Virus record (IMG/VR): IMGVR_UViG_3300037424_001314
Location: 1-55,761 of that record
Direction: 5' to 3' (one strand)
Origin: a virus
Lineage: Duplodnaviria; Caudoviricetes
Length of the DNA: 55,761 bases
Numbering within the stretch: the first letter of the stretch is position 1; every line of letters begins with the position of its first letter. The notes beneath the pieces are model-generated. The model was given only the letters and a program-made list of their open reading frames with translations. It was not told the DNA's origin and did no database searches. Positions 1-38,120 of the stretch are shown here, in pieces. A program made the position numbers and the translations under genes.

Positions 1-123
1 GAAATTCTGAGTAGCCCCCTGGTACGCTATCACGTCACCGGACACTTCGGCGAGCACAGGGAAATTCTGAGTAGCCCCCTGGTACGCTCTCACGTCACCG
101 GCCTTGGCGAGCACAGGGAAATT
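1..123. repeat. Two near-identical ~57-60 bp tandem units encoding the protein repeat
   Basis: gaaattctgagtagccccctggtacgct... at 1 and 61; a third gaaatt begins at 118. Confidence 0.9.
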
Positions 124-237
124 GGCAGAGATATTTTCTGACACAACTAATTTGCCCGCCACTGAAACTAATTTCTGTAGTTTCGGATCATCGGCCTCTT
201 GCTGAGTTCTGATATACAAATCACCATGAATCTTCAT
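1..237 (-). CDS. Repeat protein with ~20-aa LRR/L-domain-like units, truncated by the window start
   Basis: Not in the ORF track. ATG at 237 with GGAGG upstream. Reads MKIHGDLYIR...NFPVLAKAGDVRAYQGATQNFPVLAEVSGDVIAYQGATQNF, open to base 1. Confidence 0.75.
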   Translation of the reverse strand, partial: MKIHGDLYIRTQQEADDPKLQKLVSVAGKLVVSENISANFPVLAKAGDVRAYQGATQNFPVLAEVSGDVIAYQGATQNF

Positions 238-238
238 A

Positions 239-559
239 TCAGTCCTCCACCGGGCGCAGCCCTTCATGGGTCTGTTCGATTTGGCGGACTACGCGGTAGG
301 TGTCTGCATCCAGGGGAGCAATCTTCACTGGGTCGGTGTCTCCGCCTTTCCCGTGGTCCTTATGGAACAATGAGCAGTTACTTCCCGCCACGAGAAACCC
401 GACAGTCTGCCCATCCACACAGGGATAGAATGCCCCTTTGTTGAAACTGTGCGGGTTGCCGCCGCTGCCGGTAAAAAGCACTTTGTTGTCCGATGGGGTG
501 AGCCCTCCGGGAAGGATCGCCCCGCCAATTAACGCTAAGTCTCCATGCCTAATGTTCAT
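239..559 (-). CDS. Conserved-type phage hypothetical protein (RHGD...H...HKDH...YRVVRQ pattern)
   Basis: ORF 239..631; the ATG at 559 (MNIRHGDLAL) avoids overlap with the upstream gene. Confidence 0.65.
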   Translation of the reverse strand: MNIRHGDLALIGGAILPGGLTPSDNKVLFTGSGGNPHSFNKGAFYPCVDGQTVGFLVAGSNCSLFHKDHGKGGDTDPVKIAPLDADTYRVVRQIEQTHEGLRPVED

Positions 560-563
560 TAGT

Positions 564-1067
564 TCAACCTTTCGGGAAAAGCGGTTCTTGTTTCGTCTCT
601 TCGAATTTAATGACCCCGTTTTCTCTGACACCGTAAATGTCGGGGCAGTCTATTTTGACCGGCTTCAGTTTGGGCGGCTCAAACTTGACCGTTACTTCCG
701 TCTTGAGCGTGTCCGGGTGGACCGTAACCGTAGTCGTTTGGCGCCGGATACGCTGGTCTGTCGGGTCTTTGCGTATGTCATCGCAGAGTGCTTGCCAAGT
801 TGTCTCCTGAGCTTCCTTGACCCCGGGTATCTTGTTCAGGTCGAATTCTGAGAGCGCTGTTTGCCCCGGCATTTCCTCTGCCACCCCAAATCCCCTCAAG
901 GATTGAAGCTCGTTGATCTGTCCATTAGGTTCGTTCATTGGTTTTGACTCTCCTTCGTATTCCGCACACGCGGGGCTGTCCTTTGATGTAGCCTCGCCCC
1001 AGGATTTACAGACCCCATCCTTGAGCTTCAGGCGCGTTCCACAGTAGAGTTGCGTTGGTCCGGCCAT
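564..1067 (-). CDS. Hypothetical protein with Cys-containing N-terminus
   Basis: 167-aa ORF with AAGGAG RBS, directly downstream of the array. Confidence 0.7.
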   Translation of the reverse strand: MAGPTQLYCGTRLKLKDGVCKSWGEATSKDSPACAEYEGESKPMNEPNGQINELQSLRGFGVAEEMPGQTALSEFDLNKIPGVKEAQETTWQALCDDIRKDPTDQRIRRQTTTVTVHPDTLKTEVTVKFEPPKLKPVKIDCPDIYGVRENGVIKFEETKQEPLFPKG

Positions 1068-1089
1068 TGTGTTCTCCTTGAATTCTCGT

Positions 1090-1240
1090 CGGCATCTCCC
1101 TGCGCCCGTGGGCTAACCGTTTTGCCCCGACTTCAGAGCGCGAACAACCTCGGCATCTCCCTGCGCCCGTGGGCTAACCTATTCTGCTTTGGCCGCGCCG
1201 TTGCTGGCAATCGGCATCTCCCTGCGCCCGTGGGCTAACC
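1090..1240 (-). CRISPR. Mini CRISPR array: 3 identical 29-nt repeats GGTTAGCCCACGGGCGCAGGGAGATGCCG and 2 unique 32-nt spacers
   Basis: Repeats at 1212-1240, 1151-1179 and 1090-1118, exact 61-nt period. Spacers ATTGCCAGCAACGGCGCGGCCAAAGCAGAATA and AGGTTGTTCGCGCTCTGAAGTCGGGGCAAAAC. Each repeat is followed by A, so 30+31 is also possible. Orientation inferred from the I-E-like 8-nt ...CCG handle. Confidence 0.88.
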
Positions 1241-1373
1241 TCTATGAAATCACGTTGGTTTTTCTTGAAAATGCCTTCCATGTATTAACCCACAGGTTTA
1301 AGAAGGTTGCAGTCAAAGCGTGCCCTAATGAGCTACTTTAGCGACTGCCCACTGTGCCTCAGTGGTTTAATTG
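1241..1373 (-). ncRNA. Putative tracrRNA/omegaRNA-like scaffold or structured leader
   Basis: Stems at 1349-1354/1360-1365, 1309-1314/1343-1348 and 1332-1342. Segments 1285-1296 and 1267-1275 are complementary to the repeat allowing G:U pairs. Confidence 0.55.
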
Positions 1374-2591
1374 TTAACCGAAAGCTCTTGCCTTGATGTT
1401 CATGGCGCTATTGAGCGTCCTATCCTTGACCATCCCGCAGGCAGGACATTCGTAAACGCGAACCTCTAGCGGAATCTCTTTCTGGGCCCCGCACTGGCTA
1501 CAGGTCATAGTTGTTTTGGGAGCGGGAACCTGAATAAACTCTCTCCCGTGATCCTCACATTGAGATTCAAGCCTGAAGTGGAATTGGCGCCAAGCAGCAT
1601 CGTGTATTTTTTTGGGTAGTTTGGGGTAATCTCCACCCTTAGACGCCATCCCCTTAATGTTCAACTTCTCGGCAGCGATACGGTCATATCGAGAAGCGTA
1701 TTCATGAGCAGTCTTGCAGATAAAATCCTGTCGTCTGTTGGCTATCTTCTCGTGTAGGCGAGCAACCTCTAGCCTGCATTGCTCGCGTCGTTTCGATCCC
1801 TTCTGTGCTCTCGACAGTTTCCGTTGTAGGACCCGTAGGCGTTTTTGCTCCTGCTCAAAGAATTTCGGATTCTCAGTCCTGTTCCCCTCTGAATCCATAG
1901 AGAAATGGGTTATTCCTACATCTATCCCCACTGTCTTGTTCGTGGGTTCAAGGGGATGTGTCGGGACGTCTTTGCAACTGAAGACTACAAACCATCTCCC
2001 CGAACGTTCCTTTTTTATTGTGGTGGTGCAAACCTGGAAATTTTCACCGTTTCGAGACGCCTGAGGAACCAGGTTGACGACGCTATTGATGGTAAGGAAT
2101 AACCGCCTGCTATCATACATTTTGAAACGGCCCACGTGATCGACTTCAATGTATTTGCCATTGATTCTCCAGCCAGATGAATTTGGGAATGTAAACGACG
2201 TGTAATATTGGTAACCCCGAAACTTCGGGAACCCAGAGGAGGCCCCCGCTCCAGACTTTGCTCTGCGAAAAAACGCTTTGAATGCTAGATCAAGACGTTT
2301 CAGTACGTCTTTAAGAACCTGAGAGCCCACCAAAGCGTATTCAGGAAATTCTTTCTTGAGTTCTACAAGTTGCTTTGCCTGGTCGTATTCGTTGACACCT
2401 CGTTTGGGCATATAGCCAGGTCCGTACGTTGTAGTGTCAACACAGTCCCGTTTCCCAAAGCCCTTGTTGTACGCATCTATCCTCTGCTCAAGAGCACAGT
2501 TATAGAGCCGCTGACAGAGAGAGAACCATTCGAGTGCTTTTGACTCTGTGTCTTTATTGATCGTGGCCCTGAACTTGAAAGTCCTTCTCAT
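1374..2591 (-). CDS. tnpB: TnpB/Cas12f-like RNA-guided protein with probably inactive RuvC-III
   Basis: IS605 OrfB-type N-terminus (TFKFR...LYNCAL), GFPKFR, RuvC-I GIDVG (D224), RuvC-II AAEKL (E308), zinc finger CSQC/CPAC, RuvC-III DRTLNSAMNI (T392 in place of D). No tnpA nearby. Confidence 0.92.
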   Translation of the reverse strand: MRRTFKFRATINKDTESKALEWFSLCQRLYNCALEQRIDAYNKGFGKRDCVDTTTYGPGYMPKRGVNEYDQAKQLVELKKEFPEYALVGSQVLKDVLKRLDLAFKAFFRRAKSGAGASSGFPKFRGYQYYTSFTFPNSSGWRINGKYIEVDHVGRFKMYDSRRLFLTINSVVNLVPQASRNGENFQVCTTTIKKERSGRWFVVFSCKDVPTHPLEPTNKTVGIDVGITHFSMDSEGNRTENPKFFEQEQKRLRVLQRKLSRAQKGSKRREQCRLEVARLHEKIANRRQDFICKTAHEYASRYDRIAAEKLNIKGMASKGGDYPKLPKKIHDAAWRQFHFRLESQCEDHGREFIQVPAPKTTMTCSQCGAQKEIPLEVRVYECPACGMVKDRTLNSAMNIKARAFG

Positions 2592-2600
2592 GCCTAAACC

Positions 2601-2738
2601 TCATGCCTTGGGGTATCCATATTTTGGCGTTCGGTAGTATTGAAGCTCGCCGCCCTTGTAGCGAAAACCGGCTGGGCACCCGTAGCAGCCGGCAGAATTC
2701 GTGCAGACGAAGCACATCACCTCACCCGAGTCGCCCAT
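2601..2738 (-). CDS. 45-aa Cys-rich hypothetical protein
   Basis: MGDSGEVMCFVCTNSAGCYGCPAGFRY...; AGGTGG RBS; ends 9 nt before the tnpB start. Confidence 0.5.
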   Translation of the reverse strand: MGDSGEVMCFVCTNSAGCYGCPAGFRYKGGELQYYRTPKYGYPKA

Positions 2739-2744
2739 TGCCAC

Positions 2745-2873
2745 CTAAGCTGCTACTAAAGACAAAAATTCCGGTTTTGCGTCCTGATTGAGCAGAGAAG
2801 CCGGAGTCTCCTCGAAATCGTCGGGTCTCTCTTGCTCCATGATTTGAAGCATCTGCATCTGCATTCCAGCCAT
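2745..2873 (-). CDS. 42-aa hypothetical protein
   Basis: MAGMQMQMLQIMEQERPDDF...; ATG overlaps the upstream stop (TAATG). Confidence 0.45.
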   Translation of the reverse strand: MAGMQMQMLQIMEQERPDDFEETPASLLNQDAKPEFLSLVAA

Positions 2874-3151
2874 TATCTCACCGCCTTAAATCTCGGGGGC
2901 CTGCCGGGTAGACGATTGGGCTCAATCTTCTCCCCTTGTTCTGCCACGTCCTCCGTAGCTTCGTGCTCGTGTTGTTTCAGGAAGCGCTCCAGGCTCTCCC
3001 TGTCTATGAGCCACAGGGCATTAACTGTGCCAGGTAGTTTCGAGTAGGTGACAAACCCCTTGGCGCACCATCTTCTCAGTGTATCCGGTGACAGCTTCAG
3101 CTCTTTTGCCACGACTTTCAGAGCCTCGTATTGGGCCATCGTTGACCTCAT
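2873..3151 (-). CDS. MerR-type/excisionase-like HTH DNA-binding protein
   Basis: VAKELKLSPDTLRRWCAKG...WLIDRESLERFL. Confidence 0.8.
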   Translation of the reverse strand: MRSTMAQYEALKVVAKELKLSPDTLRRWCAKGFVTYSKLPGTVNALWLIDRESLERFLKQHEHEATEDVAEQGEKIEPNRLPGRPPRFKAVR

Positions 3152-3370
3152 TCTTTTGCTTTTTGTTTTGATGCTCGGTATTCAGACCGCCGAGCAACGG
3201 GAGGGGGAGTTAATCAAACCTGCAATCAGACACACCAGTCAGGAGGTTGCAGCCCGCTAGGGGGCTGGATAGTTTCTCTCTTGAGTCGTGCCGGATGCCT
3301 GGGGTCACGCTCGTCCGGCGCGAGGATAGGTAAGAAGGAGGTCGTCATGGAGTGCCGCTTATGGGACTCG

Positions 3371-4222
3371 TCAGTTTTCGGTCGGATCTTCTGTTATCAA
3401 TTTTTGCCTAATATGTTTGATGGTTGGTCGCTGAATGTTCTGTAATATTGACGAGGAGAAGTTGCTTTCCCAGGGATCAACTAGGCCGTTGCGAGTTCCT
3501 CTAATTAATTTATTCCGACCATCGTTGCTAGCATCAACGTGTGTCGTAAGGGCTGCTCGTCCAGCCTCGTCGATACTCTTTGTTGAGATAAGCAACTGGA
3601 GGTAGTCTTTGCCACACACAGGGGCCAACAATCTCATGCCGTAGGCAATATGTGTTTGGTTGTCGTCTAATTGCTTACGCCGCCTGCGTTTGCTTGGGTC
3701 GGGGTTGCCAATCAACTTCCCTACGTTGGCATTAACCGAGACGATGCGGAACGTTACAGAGTGAAAATCCGATGGATTCTTCAGCCCAACGTCTCTGAGT
3801 AAATCTCGGGCCGAGGTTTCTTCCGTTACCCCAGAGAGAGAAGATTCGGGATTGAGTTGCTGAATCCCGGTTAAACACTCGCGGATGACCCCGTGGTTGA
3901 AGGCATCCATCATCGACGATTTATCAACAGACCGATACTCTTTGTTGAGCATTCTTTCATAGTGCAGGCGACCAGGATGATCTTTAGAGGCGCCTTTCAC
4001 GAGATCTGCCAACGCGTCATATTTATCCCTATTGTATTCATAAATGTATGGCTTCAGTTCACGCCACTGAGGCGTGAAAAAGGGACTGGGGACGGGGAAG
4101 CCAAAATGTTTGTCTCTACACAGTTTATAAAACCCAAAAAGCCTATCATACAGACCAGTTGTGACCAAGATACGATAGTGTATCAGCCCAACATTAAGCC
4201 CGGCATAACTAACCCCGTTCAT
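3371..4222 (-). CDS. Hypothetical protein coupled to the ParB-like gene
   Basis: ORF 3371..4264; ATG at 4222 follows GGAGG and overlaps the end of the upstream gene. Confidence 0.7.
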   Translation of the reverse strand: MNGVSYAGLNVGLIHYRILVTTGLYDRLFGFYKLCRDKHFGFPVPSPFFTPQWRELKPYIYEYNRDKYDALADLVKGASKDHPGRLHYERMLNKEYRSVDKSSMMDAFNHGVIRECLTGIQQLNPESSLSGVTEETSARDLLRDVGLKNPSDFHSVTFRIVSVNANVGKLIGNPDPSKRRRRKQLDDNQTHIAYGMRLLAPVCGKDYLQLLISTKSIDEAGRAALTTHVDASNDGRNKLIRGTRNGLVDPWESNFSSSILQNIQRPTIKHIRQKLITEDPTEN

Positions 4223-5729
4223 TACCGCCTCCGATAATCCCCCTGCTCTGGAAACTGTTTTCAACCTGTCTCAGTTGGTCTGCTATGCCGCTAAGGACTG
4301 AATAGATTCGCTTAAATTCCGGCTTTTCCATGATGTCCCAATACTGTTTGGCGTTTGCGACTCCGATCATGTGAATGAATTCGTCTCCGAATCTGTTGAA
4401 TACCTTGATCCATCCGTTGATGTCTTGAAGTTGAGCTGACTTCTCTCTCTGGGCATCAATGCGTTTCTTCTCTTCCTCAAGTTCGGTCTGCTTCCTCTTC
4501 AGGTCATCCTTTTGCTTGGCGAGCTGCTGTTTAATGTGGTCAAGCTCCTCACGTTCGCGGGCGATGGTGTCGTAAGCGTCGTTCAGTTCTTCCTCTTGCT
4601 CCGCGTTCTTCTCGGCCTGGATTTCAACACGGAGTTGCTCAGTCATCTCGGCCCGGATCTTTTCGGCCACCTCAAGCTCAACCTGCTCCCGAAGGTTAAC
4701 GATCTGATTTTCTAGGTTGGTTACTTGTCCTTCATAGAGGTTGCGGTCCTCCATGAGTTCCTGAATCTCGCGTTGAAGTTCGGCCTTCTCGTCCCCGGCG
4801 TTCTCGATCTGATTGCGGATTTTGGATATTTCAGCGGTGGCGGCCTTGACCTTCTCTTCGTATTCGGCCTTCAGTTTTTCAGCCTGTTTGGTTGCCTGTT
4901 CTTGAAGCCGCTTGGTCTCGGCCTGAAGCTGTTCCTTCGCTTGTCGGACCTCGGCGTTCTTCTCGTTGAGCTTCTTGTTCCAGTTGATAAGCTCTTGTGC
5001 GGCAATCTCTTTCAGGCGAGCGGCCTGTTGAGCTTCTTTAATGGCGACGCGGCGCTCTGCTGAGTGAGTAGGTAGGTCTTCCTTACTCAATTCCCCGGAG
5101 ACCAGCTTGTCGATGCAGGCCGTCACTTCGGAGTAGTCGTAAACGCGCTCGTTTCCGTTATCTGGGTTGCGAGAGGTTTCAATGCGGAGGGGGAGGAGAA
5201 AACGAATAGCGTCATCCATAGAAACATTATGTTGCAACATAACGTTTTCGATCCCAGGTATAGACCCTACAGCTATACGTCCGAGCACGTCTGTCTGTTG
5301 CTTCAGCCCGAACACTTTCGCAATCTGCTTCCACTCTTTCCCTTCCGCCCTCATCCTCGCGAAGCACACGCACTCAGCTTGCCAGTTGAAGGAGCGCAAC
5401 TTGTTCTCGGAAAGGTTGCGGCCCCATACCCCGTAGTCTGATTGGTCGTAAATGATGATTGCAGGGATATCGGTCCAGTGTTGGGTTGCCTTATTAGATC
5501 GAGCGTCAGACCAAAGCTTTTCATAGGCACGGAGACGCCCGGCGCCCGCGACTACCTCAAACTTGCCTGTATCTCCATTGACATCATGAAGAGGCCGGAC
5601 GGTTATCGGATTGATGAGTCCGAACTCCTTGATATTCGCTGCGAGGGTTGCAACATTCTCTTGCGAATGTGGATTCGGGTTATCAGGATTTGGTCTGATC
5701 TTTTCGATGGGTAGGAGTGTGATTTTCAT
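4209..5729 (-). CDS. ParB/Srx N-terminal domain protein with long coiled coil
   Basis: IRPNPDNPN...IKEFGLINPITVRP...VVAGAGRLRAY...SEN; E/K/Q-rich helical C-terminal half. Confidence 0.85.
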   Translation of the reverse strand: MKITLLPIEKIRPNPDNPNPHSQENVATLAANIKEFGLINPITVRPLHDVNGDTGKFEVVAGAGRLRAYEKLWSDARSNKATQHWTDIPAIIIYDQSDYGVWGRNLSENKLRSFNWQAECVCFARMRAEGKEWKQIAKVFGLKQQTDVLGRIAVGSIPGIENVMLQHNVSMDDAIRFLLPLRIETSRNPDNGNERVYDYSEVTACIDKLVSGELSKEDLPTHSAERRVAIKEAQQAARLKEIAAQELINWNKKLNEKNAEVRQAKEQLQAETKRLQEQATKQAEKLKAEYEEKVKAATAEISKIRNQIENAGDEKAELQREIQELMEDRNLYEGQVTNLENQIVNLREQVELEVAEKIRAEMTEQLRVEIQAEKNAEQEEELNDAYDTIAREREELDHIKQQLAKQKDDLKRKQTELEEEKKRIDAQREKSAQLQDINGWIKVFNRFGDEFIHMIGVANAKQYWDIMEKPEFKRIYSVLSGIADQLRQVENSFQSRGIIGGGNERG

Positions 5730-5741
5730 TATGATGGCTCC

Positions 5742-6557
5742 CTATTGGACGGGGAATGTTTCGGTATTCTGGGCTTTCGGAAGACACTTCGTCGGTAACA
5801 ATCTAAGCGTCTGCTGTACCGTCGGGTTCTCGCCCAGCCACGCCTTGAATGCTTCACGGAGGAACTGATCGTTCTCGGGACAGGGCTCGATAACACAGTC
5901 GGGCATCTTCTTTTGCTTGCGGCGGTCCCTGATGGAGAGCAGTCCCCCGCGGAGAGCGGCGTGTCGTTTTGATGCGTACCAGTCGAACGAGCCACCACTG
6001 TTGAATCTCGGGGGCAGTCGATCCTTGTGGACGAGAACCTTGAGTCTCTGTGTTGGCGTAGGCCAGAAGGAATTGTCGGTCTGAGCGGGAATGAAGGTCT
6101 GGGCTCTCCACTCATCCGTGGCGCTCATGCGCTTCATGAGGTTGTTCAGCATGTTCCCCTGAAGCATGACCGTCTCGTTGAGCTGGTTCAGGATTTGGGT
6201 GAGGACCGGCGAGTTATACTGACCTGTGATCATGACCTCATACAAAACCGTCTCTGCCCAATCTCTAAACTCGCCGGCATGCGGGGCGTCGCTTCTCATG
6301 CAAACCCGGATTACTCCGCGGTGTGACAAAACAACCGTTTTTTGGACGCCGCCAAGCGTCTCCAAAGGGAGCAACCTGAAGTGGCTACCTTCGCGAAGCT
6401 CTCCATTGGCGGTCAATTCGGCAATCAACTTCCGACATGCCCACGCCTTTTTGTACCCAAGTCCAGACGAAAGAGCGTTGGCAGTTATCCATTTCTGTCC
6501 ATCAGCCTCAACGATTCTGAAGTCGGTATTTTGGAATCTCATGGTCAAGGCGTTCAT
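5742..6557 (-). CDS. BRO-N domain antirepressor-like protein
   Basis: FRIVEADGQKWITANALSSGLGY...TLGGVQKTVVLSHRGV...MRSDAPHAGEFRDWAETVL; located just after cro. Confidence 0.85.
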   Translation of the reverse strand: MNALTMRFQNTDFRIVEADGQKWITANALSSGLGYKKAWACRKLIAELTANGELREGSHFRLLPLETLGGVQKTVVLSHRGVIRVCMRSDAPHAGEFRDWAETVLYEVMITGQYNSPVLTQILNQLNETVMLQGNMLNNLMKRMSATDEWRAQTFIPAQTDNSFWPTPTQRLKVLVHKDRLPPRFNSGGSFDWYASKRHAALRGGLLSIRDRRKQKKMPDCVIEPCPENDQFLREAFKAWLGENPTVQQTLRLLPTKCLPKAQNTETFPVQ

Positions 6558-6571
6558 GTTGTCTTCCCCCT

Positions 6572-8192: not shown

Positions 8193-9359
8193 ATGCCTAT
8201 CAAGCAGCGGTGCTCTAAATGCCGCCAGTTCGTGACGTACGGAACAAGGATCTGTCCTAATCCTTCGTGTGGGGGGGCGGTCCACAAATCGGTCTATCTC
8301 GTCAAGAAAGTCAGGGGGAGACTCGTAACGCGTAGCCTCGGGATATGCACGCGTTCGGATGCAGAGACCGAACACGCCCGATTTATACTAGAGATCGGAC
8401 GGGGCATAATCTCGGCACCCACGTTCCTGGGAGAACTCCTTGACGGCCATGTAGCGAAGATGTGCGCCGAAAAGAAGGACTACCACCAACGAGCGCGCCT
8501 GTTTTTTGACCGGGCGCTTACTTTTTTCGGGGACGTGGATATTTCACGTATCACGCCTGACCAAGCTCGAAAATTCCAAACATGGTTGATCGCGGGAAGA
8601 AATTCTGAGTCCTACTGTGACAAACACATTGCGATGTGCAAGGCCGCGTGGAATTCGGGGGCGTGGGGCCGGCCGAATCCGTTTGAACAGGTAAAGCTCT
8701 TCAACCCGGATAACACGTTGATTCGGTGGCTCTCTGACGACGAAGAGGCGCGCCTGTTGATCGCGGCAAAAGAGTTACCCAACAAGCCAGGACATAACCA
8801 GGGCGGCATGACGCCGCTCAACCTCCACGAAATCATCTTGATCGCAATTCACACCGGCCTCCGCAAGCAAAATATACTGAAACTTCATGTCGATGAGATC
8901 CACGCGGCATCTCGCATGATCATAGTCAGACAGAAGCGTAACCGGACCCACGTCGCTTACATCAACGAAGCCGTTCAAGGAGCACTCCAGTCTGTGACGC
9001 CGAACGATCAGGGATGGTATTTCCCCAATCCTCTAACGAACAAGCCGTATACGGATATTGTGGGCACCTTTGAAGCAGTCAAGAAGCTGGCGGGGATAAC
9101 AAAACCGTTCCGGTTCCACGACCTCAGACACCACGCAGCGACAAAACTGCTCCGTTTAACTGGGAACCTCCGGCTCGTGCAACTGTTCCTCGGTCACAGC
9201 ACAGCGGCAGTAACAGAGAAGTATGCACATGTTTTAGCTGACGATCAACGCGCGGCTGTTGAGCAGCTTTGTGGCAGGGGGGTGTACAAAAAGGCGTACC
9301 AATTGGGGATTGACGATGCTATCAACCTGTTATCACATGGAGATACGGTTCCTAATTAG
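8193..9359 (+). CDS. int: Tyrosine integrase
   Basis: HTGLR, K, FRFHDLRH, LGH and YAH catalytic motifs; N-terminal CxxC pairs. Confidence 0.95.
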   Translation: MPIKQRCSKCRQFVTYGTRICPNPSCGGAVHKSVYLVKKVRGRLVTRSLGICTRSDAETEHARFILEIGRGIISAPTFLGELLDGHVAKMCAEKKDYHQRARLFFDRALTFFGDVDISRITPDQARKFQTWLIAGRNSESYCDKHIAMCKAAWNSGAWGRPNPFEQVKLFNPDNTLIRWLSDDEEARLLIAAKELPNKPGHNQGGMTPLNLHEIILIAIHTGLRKQNILKLHVDEIHAASRMIIVRQKRNRTHVAYINEAVQGALQSVTPNDQGWYFPNPLTNKPYTDIVGTFEAVKKLAGITKPFRFHDLRHHAATKLLRLTGNLRLVQLFLGHSTAAVTEKYAHVLADDQRAAVEQLCGRGVYKKAYQLGIDDAINLLSHGDTVPN

Positions 9360-37180: not shown

Positions 37181-38120
37181 GGAGATAATTGTGAAGGTCA
37201 TTCGACTGGCATTAACTGAGGCTGGCGTTTCAGAGAAGAAGATTGCCCAGGATGCTATGGGGGGCGCAGAGCGCTTTATGCTCATGTGGGAACGTTACCT
37301 CCAGAAGGCCGGCTACGCTACCTCCCGGTGGCCTGAACCTCCGATGGGCGAATACGCGTTGTGTCTGCATGCGAACCGCATAGACCCTCGCGTCAAGGCG
37401 ACGAAACATTTGTTGTGGGGTGGCGGCTGGGAAATCGGGGAGAATATAGGCCAGCGGATAGATAAGGCCATCGTGCTTACCGAGTATATGCGAGATTTCC
37501 TCAGAGACAGACTGAACTGGTCTGCCGAGAATTGCGAGGTTATCCCTGCTCCATTCGATCATGAGATCCTGAAGTATAGATCAAACGATTTTGTCCGGCG
37601 CCGGATTGTCAGCAACAGCAATCCAAGCCGGTTTTTTGACCACGTGGTAACCGTCGCGAACCTCCTGGAAAAGAGAGGAATTGATTTCGACTGGCACTTC
37701 TGCGGTGGAAGCAAGCTGTATTGTCCGGAATTCCCTGAGCGGTTTTCATTCGAGGGGATTCATCCGAAATTGCATTATAGGGGGCTCCTGTCCAGGCACG
37801 ACATGATCGGGATGCTCACCAGCGGGCATGTCCTAGCGTATCCATCCTTTGATGATATTACCTGGGAGACTCAGGGCGTGGCGTTCCTCGAAGCCGCGGC
37901 GCTTGGCCTGCCCGTTGTGTTGACCAAAAAAGCACCGTTTACTGAAGTGATGCCAGAAGCATGGTTTTGCGAATCCGCAGAGGAAATGGCAGACACGATC
38001 ATCGCCCTGTTTGAACAGAAAGAGCGGGTGACCTACCCCGAAATCATGCGGTACGACAGCGACATAGTATTCGAGCGATTGGTGAACGTTGTTCGCGACA
38101 TGATTGGCGAGCCGGAATAA
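37161..38120 (+). CDS. Glycosyltransferase, GT-B (GT4-like)
   Basis: MGGAE...YPS...ETQGVAFLEAAALGLPVV. Confidence 0.88.
   Translation: MQLHGAKEIIVKVIRLALTEAGVSEKKIAQDAMGGAERFMLMWERYLQKAGYATSRWPEPPMGEYALCLHANRIDPRVKATKHLLWGGGWEIGENIGQRIDKAIVLTEYMRDFLRDRLNWSAENCEVIPAPFDHEILKYRSNDFVRRRIVSNSNPSRFFDHVVTVANLLEKRGIDFDWHFCGGSKLYCPEFPERFSFEGIHPKLHYRGLLSRHDMIGMLTSGHVLAYPSFDDITWETQGVAFLEAAALGLPVVLTKKAPFTEVMPEAWFCESAEEMADTIIALFEQKERVTYPEIMRYDSDIVFERLVNVVRDMIGEPE

Follow-up and report, generated by a model that had tools for sequence, protein, structure and literature searches.

Several RNA-guided systems that resemble the one described here are already in print, including the TldR proteins of phages, array-linked and inactivated Cas12f (dCas12f), Cas12m and phage-borne TranC. 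TldRs include a fliC_P-associated group, which is encoded by prophages, and an oppF-associated group; in the fliC_P-tldR arrangement, the phage copy escapes through changes in the target-adjacent motif (TAM) and in the seed. The guides of dCas12f sometimes match promoters, including those of efflux genes, suggesting repression (PMC13472631). A gradual loss of activity within Cas12m has also been reported, as have omegaRNA arrays accompanying inactivated TnpBs (PMC10691335). Here we analyse a TnpB-family gene (minus strand, positions 1374-2591; 405 amino acids plus the stop codon) and the adjacent repeat array from the IMG/VR virus record IMGVR_UViG_3300037424_001314, whose 55,761 nucleotides constitute the window to which all positions refer. 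The locus joins published features in a lineage that we did not find described. We consider, with a probability of about 0.6, that it specifies a nuclease-deficient, multi-guide and RNA-guided DNA binder or repressor, combining TldR-like with TranC/type V-U-like features.

As with TldRs, the protein is TnpB-sized, has a partly degraded RuvC triad and is carried by a temperate phage without TnpA, and its gene lies next to an RNA that combines scaffold and guide, the latter at the 3' end. Nevertheless, the TldRs described use one guide of 9-16 nt, whereas here the 3' segment of the scaffold is present three times, with two spacers of 30 nt. Only one residue of the triad is changed, whereas the published screen needed two or more (10.1101/2023.11.30.569447). 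Additionally, the zinc finger and the C-terminus are intact, the protein is without a known promoter target, and its lineage is a separate one, with a single cluster among 1.84 billion representatives at 50% identity.

The likeness to TranC and type V-U systems lies in the TnpB-sized effector, the short downstream array, the anti-repeat between gene and array and the absence of adaptation genes; some TranC systems are also phage-borne (10.64898/2026.03.27.714800). However, the TranCs described in that work have an active nuclease, their repeats measure 32-38 bp and the median repeat counts of their arrays are 4.5-5, whereas the protein in the window has threonine at the RuvC-III position and its array contains only three repeats of 31 nt, the first of them fused to the scaffold. 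We found no nuclease-dead TranC-type system in the literature searched, supplementary tables aside. The dCas12f proteins are likewise inactivated type V effectors near arrays, although these lost part of RuvC by C-terminal truncation within the Cas12f branch (PMC13472631), whereas the protein examined here is full length, carries a point substitution and belongs to a TnpB branch.

A TnpB-family protein with threonine at the RuvC-III position

The 405-amino-acid open reading frame (ORF) is intact, its C-terminus reading ...CPACGMVKDRTLNSAMNIKARAFG, and its RuvC core and zinc-ribbon TNB domain make it a member of the TnpB family. It scored 270.5 bits with the NCBIfam model guided_TnpB (NF040570; cut-off of 100), and 93.6 and 64.2 with the Pfam models OrfB_IS605 (PF01385) and Cas12f1-like_TNB (PF07282), both above their cut-offs. 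Subtype models for Cas12f2 and C2c8 remained below theirs (NF038192, 107 against 350; NF049972, 35 against 450), and the Cas12f/Cas14c models of PADLOC, in a library without cut-offs, matched at 5.5e-58. The AlphaFold2 model, built from an alignment of 67 rows, had a mean predicted local distance difference test (pLDDT) of 91.9 and a predicted template modelling score (pTM) of 0.85. Its best fold matches in the PDB were ISDra2 TnpB (8h1j, 8exa) and ISFba1 TnpB (8iaz), followed by Cas12f, LaTranC, Fanzor2 and Cas12m. Likewise, in phmmer comparisons with PDB chains the protein matched ISDra2 TnpB (E 9.5e-34) far better than LaTranC (E 4.6e-12). It shares with ISDra2 TnpB the domain order and a guide RNA at the 3' end of the gene, differing in that the record is without TnpA, the RuvC-III aspartate is replaced, and an array takes the place of a single flank-derived guide. 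In canonical TnpBs the triad is D-E-D, as opposed to D224, E308 and T392 here, and the neighbours of this gene are phage regulatory genes. Membership in Cas12m was rejected, because the PDB chains of Cas12m are larger (577-614 amino acids) and match only residues 275-403 of the query (E 2.8e-07 to 1.7e-05).

Two of the three residues of the RuvC triad are kept. Asp224 (codon at 1920-1922, minus strand), in the RuvC-I motif GIDVG (context GIDVGIT), and Glu308 (codon at 1668-1670, minus strand), in the RuvC-II motif AAEKL (context AAEKLN), both located by computing from the ORF start, align with the RuvC-I and RuvC-II acids. The third position is occupied by Thr392, whose codon is ACG (1416-1418, minus strand). 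In the phmmer alignment with PDB chains, query residues 383-403 (PACGMVKDRTLNSAMNIKARA) pair with residues 352-372 of ISDra2 TnpB, and Thr392 thus sits on Asp361, which we take to be the RuvC-III residue of a catalytic set formed with D191 and E278. The zinc finger (CxxC...CxxC; C364, C367, C382 and C385; 1437-1502, minus strand) is also intact, its four cysteines being invariant in the alignment of 67 rows.

A sequencing or assembly error at codon 392 was excluded, because a 151-nt contig from a soil metagenome of a second study (X2) spans positions 1282-1432 with no differing letter. These results agree in full with the preliminary description as to the protein itself, in which an Asp-to-Thr change at RuvC-III, encoded by a genuine ACG codon, had been proposed for an otherwise intact ORF with unaltered D224, E308 and zinc finger.

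The threonine is inherited and kept in a small clade

A search of 5.8 billion protein clusters retrieved 4,810 matches at E <= 0.001, and we examined the triad in an alignment of 121 sequences, comprising the query, 119 of the best 120 matches (the fragment P0009 was left out) and the protein from locus L054, a relative described below. Among these, 106 read D-E-D and six read D-E-T (the query, P0001, P0002, P0004, P0005 and P0007), with single occurrences of Q-G-T (P0006), S-R-G (P0008), D-E-A (L054), D-E-K and V-E-D, and four of D-E-P. The seven carriers of threonine are the query and its six nearest homologues among the best 120 of the 4,810 matches, which share 52-62% identity with it. This confinement to the query and its nearest relatives indicates that the threonine is more than chance. 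The alignment proposed in the preliminary description as a check on the threonine therefore supports it, and the alternative considered there, of close homologues all retaining aspartate beside a decaying copy, was not what we found: the nearest homologues carry threonine, the ORF is intact and only P0003 keeps the aspartate within the clade.

The same conclusion was reached with a maximum-likelihood tree of 30 rows, 28 of them picked from the best 120 matches to span the list. Three threonine subclades and P0003 (Asp) form a clade of nine rows (support 97/96), whose branching order the tree does not resolve, with L054 (Ala) nested beside P0005 and P0006 and with P0008 (Gly) placed just outside (support 96/95). 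On end branches measuring 0.06-0.48 changes per column the same threonine is retained, and its position in the tree indicates that the substitution was inherited and kept. A decayed single copy is ruled out, as homologues share the threonine. Residues R391, N394, A396 and N398 and the four zinc-finger cysteines are invariant in 17 rows, and the clade has a mean column identity of 55%, with invariant Cys, Arg and Asn motifs. Together with the confident structural model, these invariant residues indicate that the protein itself is under constraint. Judging by the alignments, the pattern is that of a protein probably kept for a role other than RuvC catalysis, and the triads of P0006 (Q-G-T) and P0008 (S-R-G) would fit a stepwise decay of an unneeded RuvC site.

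No relocated carboxylate was found by alignment. The sole candidate was D208, an acid that every member of the Thr/Ala clade carries and P0003 lacks; since 94 of the 106 canonical relatives carry an aspartate one residue before, at position 207, it represents a shift by one residue and no new member of the site.

The clade is also rare. Among 1.84 billion representatives at 50% identity, it is represented by one cluster (P0002, 686 bits), the next match scoring 451 bits, and 134 of the best 150 representatives from this set read D-E-D. A profile search of the collection of 5.8 billion clusters gave no extra clade member, and relatives in viral contigs were not found by single protein, by alignment (A2) or by exact repeat.

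Other replacements of the RuvC-III aspartate, with D and E retained, occur in neighbouring TnpB lineages: proline in P0013, P0015, P0043 and P0056, lysine in P0054, P0183, P0192, P0309 and P0314, and histidine in P0255. The proline group forms a separate clade in the tree (support 99/94), sister to a canonical protein, and these proline, lysine and histidine replacements arose independently.

A structured scaffold RNA and a two-spacer array follow the gene

The region immediately downstream of the TnpB-like gene contains an omegaRNA- or tracr-like scaffold and a short repeat array, both on the minus strand, as evidenced by conservation, covariation and folding. The scaffold extends from the stop codon to repeat 1 (1242-1373) and includes an anti-repeat (about 1285-1306). 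It is followed by repeat 1 (1211-1241), which forms its 3' end, spacer 1 (1181-1210), repeat 2 (1150-1180), spacer 2 (1120-1149) and repeat 3 (1089-1119; 97% identical to the reference copy). The three direct repeats of 31 nt, with a period of 61 nt and two 30-nt spacers that are unique within the window, are the minimum that can be counted as an array. The next ORF (564-1067, minus strand) has its start codon 21 nt past repeat 3.

Starting at the stop codon and ending with repeat 1, a stretch of approximately 170 nt is conserved in loci L035, L053, L054 and L055, giving five loci with the query. RNAalifold predicted 46 consensus pairs for these, of which 14 show compensatory changes, against 0-4 in slid controls; similarly, 93% of the pairing cells could pair, against 32-49% in the controls. 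None of 500 shuffles reached the observed value in four of five measures, while 31 of 500 did so in the fifth (further pair types). The query sequence alone folds at -58.3 kcal/mol (z = -4.09). Two helices (4 and 5), which include compensatory pairs, join repeat 1 to the anti-repeat, fused in cis, and this pairing identifies the repeat as the 3' end of an omegaRNA-like scaffold. By the same comparison, the first unit is apparently a natural fused guide RNA, with units 2 and 3 as probable duplicates of the last segment of the scaffold. The scaffold and its two-spacer array were overlooked in the preliminary description, and they give RNA-guided action a concrete form.

Such arrays are uncommon among relatives, because only L053 and L054, out of 52 loci fetched (L005-L056), have repeats of this type directly downstream of the gene. 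Loci L035 and L055 contain a single repeat unit each, and L018, L024, L050 and L056 share 14-mers elsewhere in the locus.

Related loci with intact, substituted and broken genes

Locus L053 contains the gene for P0003 (388 amino acids; DRDLNAALNI), with an intact D-E-D triad, and is located in genome G001 (contig C60). Its array (6168-6560) comprises the same scaffold and four identical repeats of 29 nt, also with a period of 61 nt. The setting is a bacterial chromosome, beside lactate-utilisation genes for a flavin adenine dinucleotide (FAD) oxidase, an iron-sulfur protein (CCG) and a lactate permease. Three ORFs in the 5 kb upstream were compared with cas families and none matched, and two L053 spacers had zero exact matches in IMG/VR.

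Locus L054, whose protein carries alanine at the RuvC-III position, has two repeats and a degenerate third, again with a period of 61 nt. Its first spacer (6265-6296) encodes FTLIELMVAV, the N-terminal motif of type IV pilins, and a convergent pilin-like gene (P0121; L054:6764-7420, minus strand; N_methyl, E 4.7e-10) lies about 470 nt downstream of the spacer. Compared with the coding sequence of this gene, the guide has 5 differences in 32 positions, including two among the first five, and there was no perfect target in the metagenome-assembled genome (MAG) containing L054. Near matches with two or three mismatches appear in 10 other places, in 8 of the 69 other genomes of the order, and the reversed control gave none. 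Searches with the L054 guides in this MAG (G002) and in G001 retrieved only self-matches and one match with three mismatches. This combination, in which the guide bears a pilin motif and a pilin-like gene stands close by, is reminiscent of the published layout of the fliC_P-associated TldRs of prophages; it is a family analogy and not evidence on the targets of the array in the window.

The MAG with L054 has a second family copy, L055 (G002:C16:87366-88470), in which a frameshift and two TAA stops interrupt the reading frame. This broken copy still reads DRTQNSSLNI, and another pilin-type N-terminus is found some 8 kb from it, at C16:96490. The genes beside L053 and L054 differ from those beside the gene in the window, and hence the three loci share no conserved partner gene.

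Searches for spacer targets

Within the window, both spacers matched only themselves with up to three mismatches, and 24-mers had no match with up to seven mismatches. Searching for 16-mers with up to three mismatches produced one match with three mismatches, at 37605-37620, against an estimated 0.4 or so expected. Exact 20-mers of both spacers were absent from IMG/VR, and blastn comparisons with the INPHARED phages did not identify a target (best E of 3 and 0.9 for the two spacers). Among bacterial genomes, and allowing up to three mismatches, the 30-mer of spacer 1 was absent from all 70 genomes searched in the order that includes G001, and the 26-mer of spacer 2 from all 401 genomes sampled from the phylum of that order. 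The 20-mer of spacer 1 had two matches with three mismatches in G001 and G002, which is near chance.

The phage and its possible population variants

CheckV puts the completeness of this linear record at 46, and the record corresponds to a temperate tailed phage. It encodes a tyrosine integrase (8193-9359, plus strand; Pfam and PHROGs), which is a marker of temperate phages, as well as a Bro-N antirepressor, a ParB-like protein, a prohead protease, a virion protein, a tape measure protein and a portal protein. The TnpB-like gene is situated in the lysogeny region, 5.6 kb from the integrase, with a regulator of the helix-turn-helix (HTH) family HTH_17, similar to excisionases, immediately upstream (2873-3151, minus strand). 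The gene, its scaffold, the array and the ORF at 564-1067 all have the same orientation. There were zero matches across the 55.7-kb record to Cas1 or to the Y1 TnpA transposase (Y1_Tnp), transposon ends not having been searched for. A promoter scan of 500-3300 found one sigma-70-like site, inside spacer 1 (TTGCCA-18-CAGAAT; 9 of 12 matches), where shuffles expect 1.8, and no terminator-like site was found on the minus strand of the same interval. Rfam and tRNA scans of the whole window retrieved nothing. At the beginning of the window, an ORF running off its start (1-267, minus strand) encodes a near-repeated peptide (…NFPVLAKAGDVRAYQGATQNFPVLAEVSGDVIAYQGATQNF).

The probable source metagenome (X1), from a sediment sample, contains possible variants of the locus. 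A contig of 56 nt (depth 6.2) joins position 1315 to 2710, leaving out 1316-2709 and with it the TnpB-like gene in full and roughly the first 58 nt of the scaffold; the gene-bearing contig has a depth of 10 and its flanks of 12-15. We found no duplicate of the scaffold upstream of the gene that could have caused this joint. Thus, a phage sub-population may exist without the gene and with the array, for which this single short contig is weak evidence. Another contig (59 nt, depth 5) has repeat 1 (1212-1241) followed by 29 other letters in place of the scaffold, indicating a repeat copy beside a different sequence, either as a variant of the array or in a second array. A contig with only the repeat reached a depth of 37, against 10-15 for the flanks.

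Possible function and alternative explanations

The conservation described above suggests that this is most likely a domesticated TnpB-type protein of a phage, acting as an RNA-guided DNA binder that cuts very poorly or not at all. The protein would bind the structured scaffold RNA encoded just downstream, and each spacer of 30 nt would pair, through its first 16-20 nt, with DNA adjacent to a TAM; the resulting stable R-loop would hinder transcription or replication of the target, in the manner of CRISPR interference (CRISPRi). Scaffold, repeat 1 and guide 1 would be fused, in the style of an omegaRNA or a natural single-guide RNA, and repeats 2 and 3 might pair in trans with the anti-repeat of the scaffold, as a CRISPR RNA (crRNA) does with its trans-activating RNA (tracrRNA), to give a second guide. 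In proposing this, we infer loss of cleavage, DNA binding, repression, the use of guide 2 and the choice of targets. Loss of cutting is supported by the stepwise decay within the clade together with the published statement that mutation of any D-E-D residue abolishes the nuclease activity of TnpB (10.1101/2023.11.30.569447, section 4).

Several observations weigh against a non-cutting binder. The query departs from the catalytic triad at a single residue, and seven of the eight sequences in the Thr/Ala clade keep D224 and E308, so that a residual or altered activity may persist. One family copy, L055, is broken, and the X1 contig that skips the gene suggests that it may be dispensable. Moreover, there is no protospacer for either spacer in the window, in IMG/VR, in INPHARED or in the 70 and 401 genomes searched; since the host is unidentified and half of the phage is missing, we consider this a gap and not evidence against an RNA-guided binder. 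From the literature, it has been argued that conserved RuvC-III replacements can keep nuclease activity (PMC10691335, section 8), and the TldR screen left out changes of a single residue as often spurious, on the ground that a catalytic residue can occupy an alternate position (10.1101/2023.11.30.569447).

In view of these two cautions from the literature, we limit our confidence in the binder to the value given above and retain, as a rather unlikely alternative, that the protein is still a nuclease. The conserved threonine would then be part of a rearranged or altered RuvC site of the 'RIIIr' type, and the array would provide a miniature type V or TranC-like interference against competing elements; a site of this kind might be slow at cutting, produce nicks, rely on another metal or process nothing but its own RNA. 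An altered RuvC-III motif has been described in six branches, of which the largest has Asp to His, together with the argument that a conserved and specific replacement implies activity (PMC10691335, section 8), and phage-borne TranCs with antiphage spacers are in print (10.64898/2026.03.27.714800). The retention of D224 and E308 in seven of eight clade members points in the same direction, as does the sister L053, with its intact triad and its array of four repeats. However, the position is not fixed, as it reads threonine, alanine (L054) or glycine (P0008), all three residues are lost in P0006 and P0008, and no new invariant carboxylate emerges from the alignment. Additionally, the hydroxyl of threonine is a poor stand-in for a metal-binding carboxylate.

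Two other explanations appear to us quite improbable. In one, the DNA-bound protein would be a recruiter and not a repressor, bringing a partner as do Cas12k, in Tn7-like transposition, and dCas12f, with a sigma factor, and it could possibly steer integration, excision or activation of the phage. The position of the gene in the lysogeny region, just downstream of the excisionase-like HTH gene and 5.6 kb from the integrase, is compatible with this, and nuclease-dead type V recruiters are in print (PMC13472631, PMC10691335). Nevertheless, and as a difference from the Cas12k-containing CRISPR-associated transposons (CAST), the record has no match to TniQ, a weak test because the matches in control genomes all stayed below threshold. 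In Pfam and PHROGs, neither sigma factors nor transposases were matched by the five closest ORFs (239-631, 564-1067, 2873-3151, 3371-4264 and 4209-5729), and a partner gene is not conserved across the three loci compared. In the other, the gene would be the functionless remnant of a TnpB or TranC element drifting to loss, with the array as a relic. It would explain the frameshift and the stops in L055, the contig that skips 1316-2709 and the failure to find spacer targets in the collections searched, but it sits poorly with the intact ORF, the column identity and invariant Cys, Arg and Asn motifs of the clade, the compensatory changes in the RNA and the retention of the same threonine over its end branches.

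Regarding the function assigned in the preliminary description, the proposal of a non-cutting RNA-guided binder or repressor is strengthened by the conserved threonine, by the loss of the triad in P0006 and P0008 and by the scaffold with its array, whereas cleavage loss and DNA binding stay as predictions. Its suggested use against rival phages or host genes found no support, in that neither spacer had a target in the collections searched, and the novelty of a natural CRISPRi-like tool was overstated, given that phage TldRs and array-adjacent nuclease-dead Cas12f had already been reported.

Significance for TnpB evolution

The general principle having been published already, the value of this locus is incremental. 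If the protein is indeed non-cutting, it would be a 405-amino-acid, phage-borne and naturally multiplexed RNA-guided repressor. The pilin guide of L054 extends the flagellin theme, known from TldRs with fliC_P, to a second surface appendage, one often exploited by phages as a receptor. Going further, it is conceivable, if doubtful, that the lineage is midway in two transitions, from omegaRNA to array, by duplication of the last 31 nt, and from nuclease to binder, so as to form a natural multi-guide CRISPRi module of TnpB size. In this doubtful scenario, the module might be carried by mobile elements, temperate phages among them, in bacteria of sediments and soils, and it could perhaps serve for reprogramming host surface structures, as hinted by the pilin-motif guide of L054, or for silencing competitors; the repeat copy with a different flank in X1 would then mean that spacers turn over without Cas1-Cas2.

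One small clade brings together a protein with intact triad and an array (L053), proteins with a single substitution (Thr, Ala) and proteins with a fully degraded triad (P0006, P0008). Because it spans this whole range, the loss of cleavage could be studied stepwise within one family and, if our interpretation is true, the locus would offer a rare snapshot of a TnpB omegaRNA becoming a repeat-spacer array.

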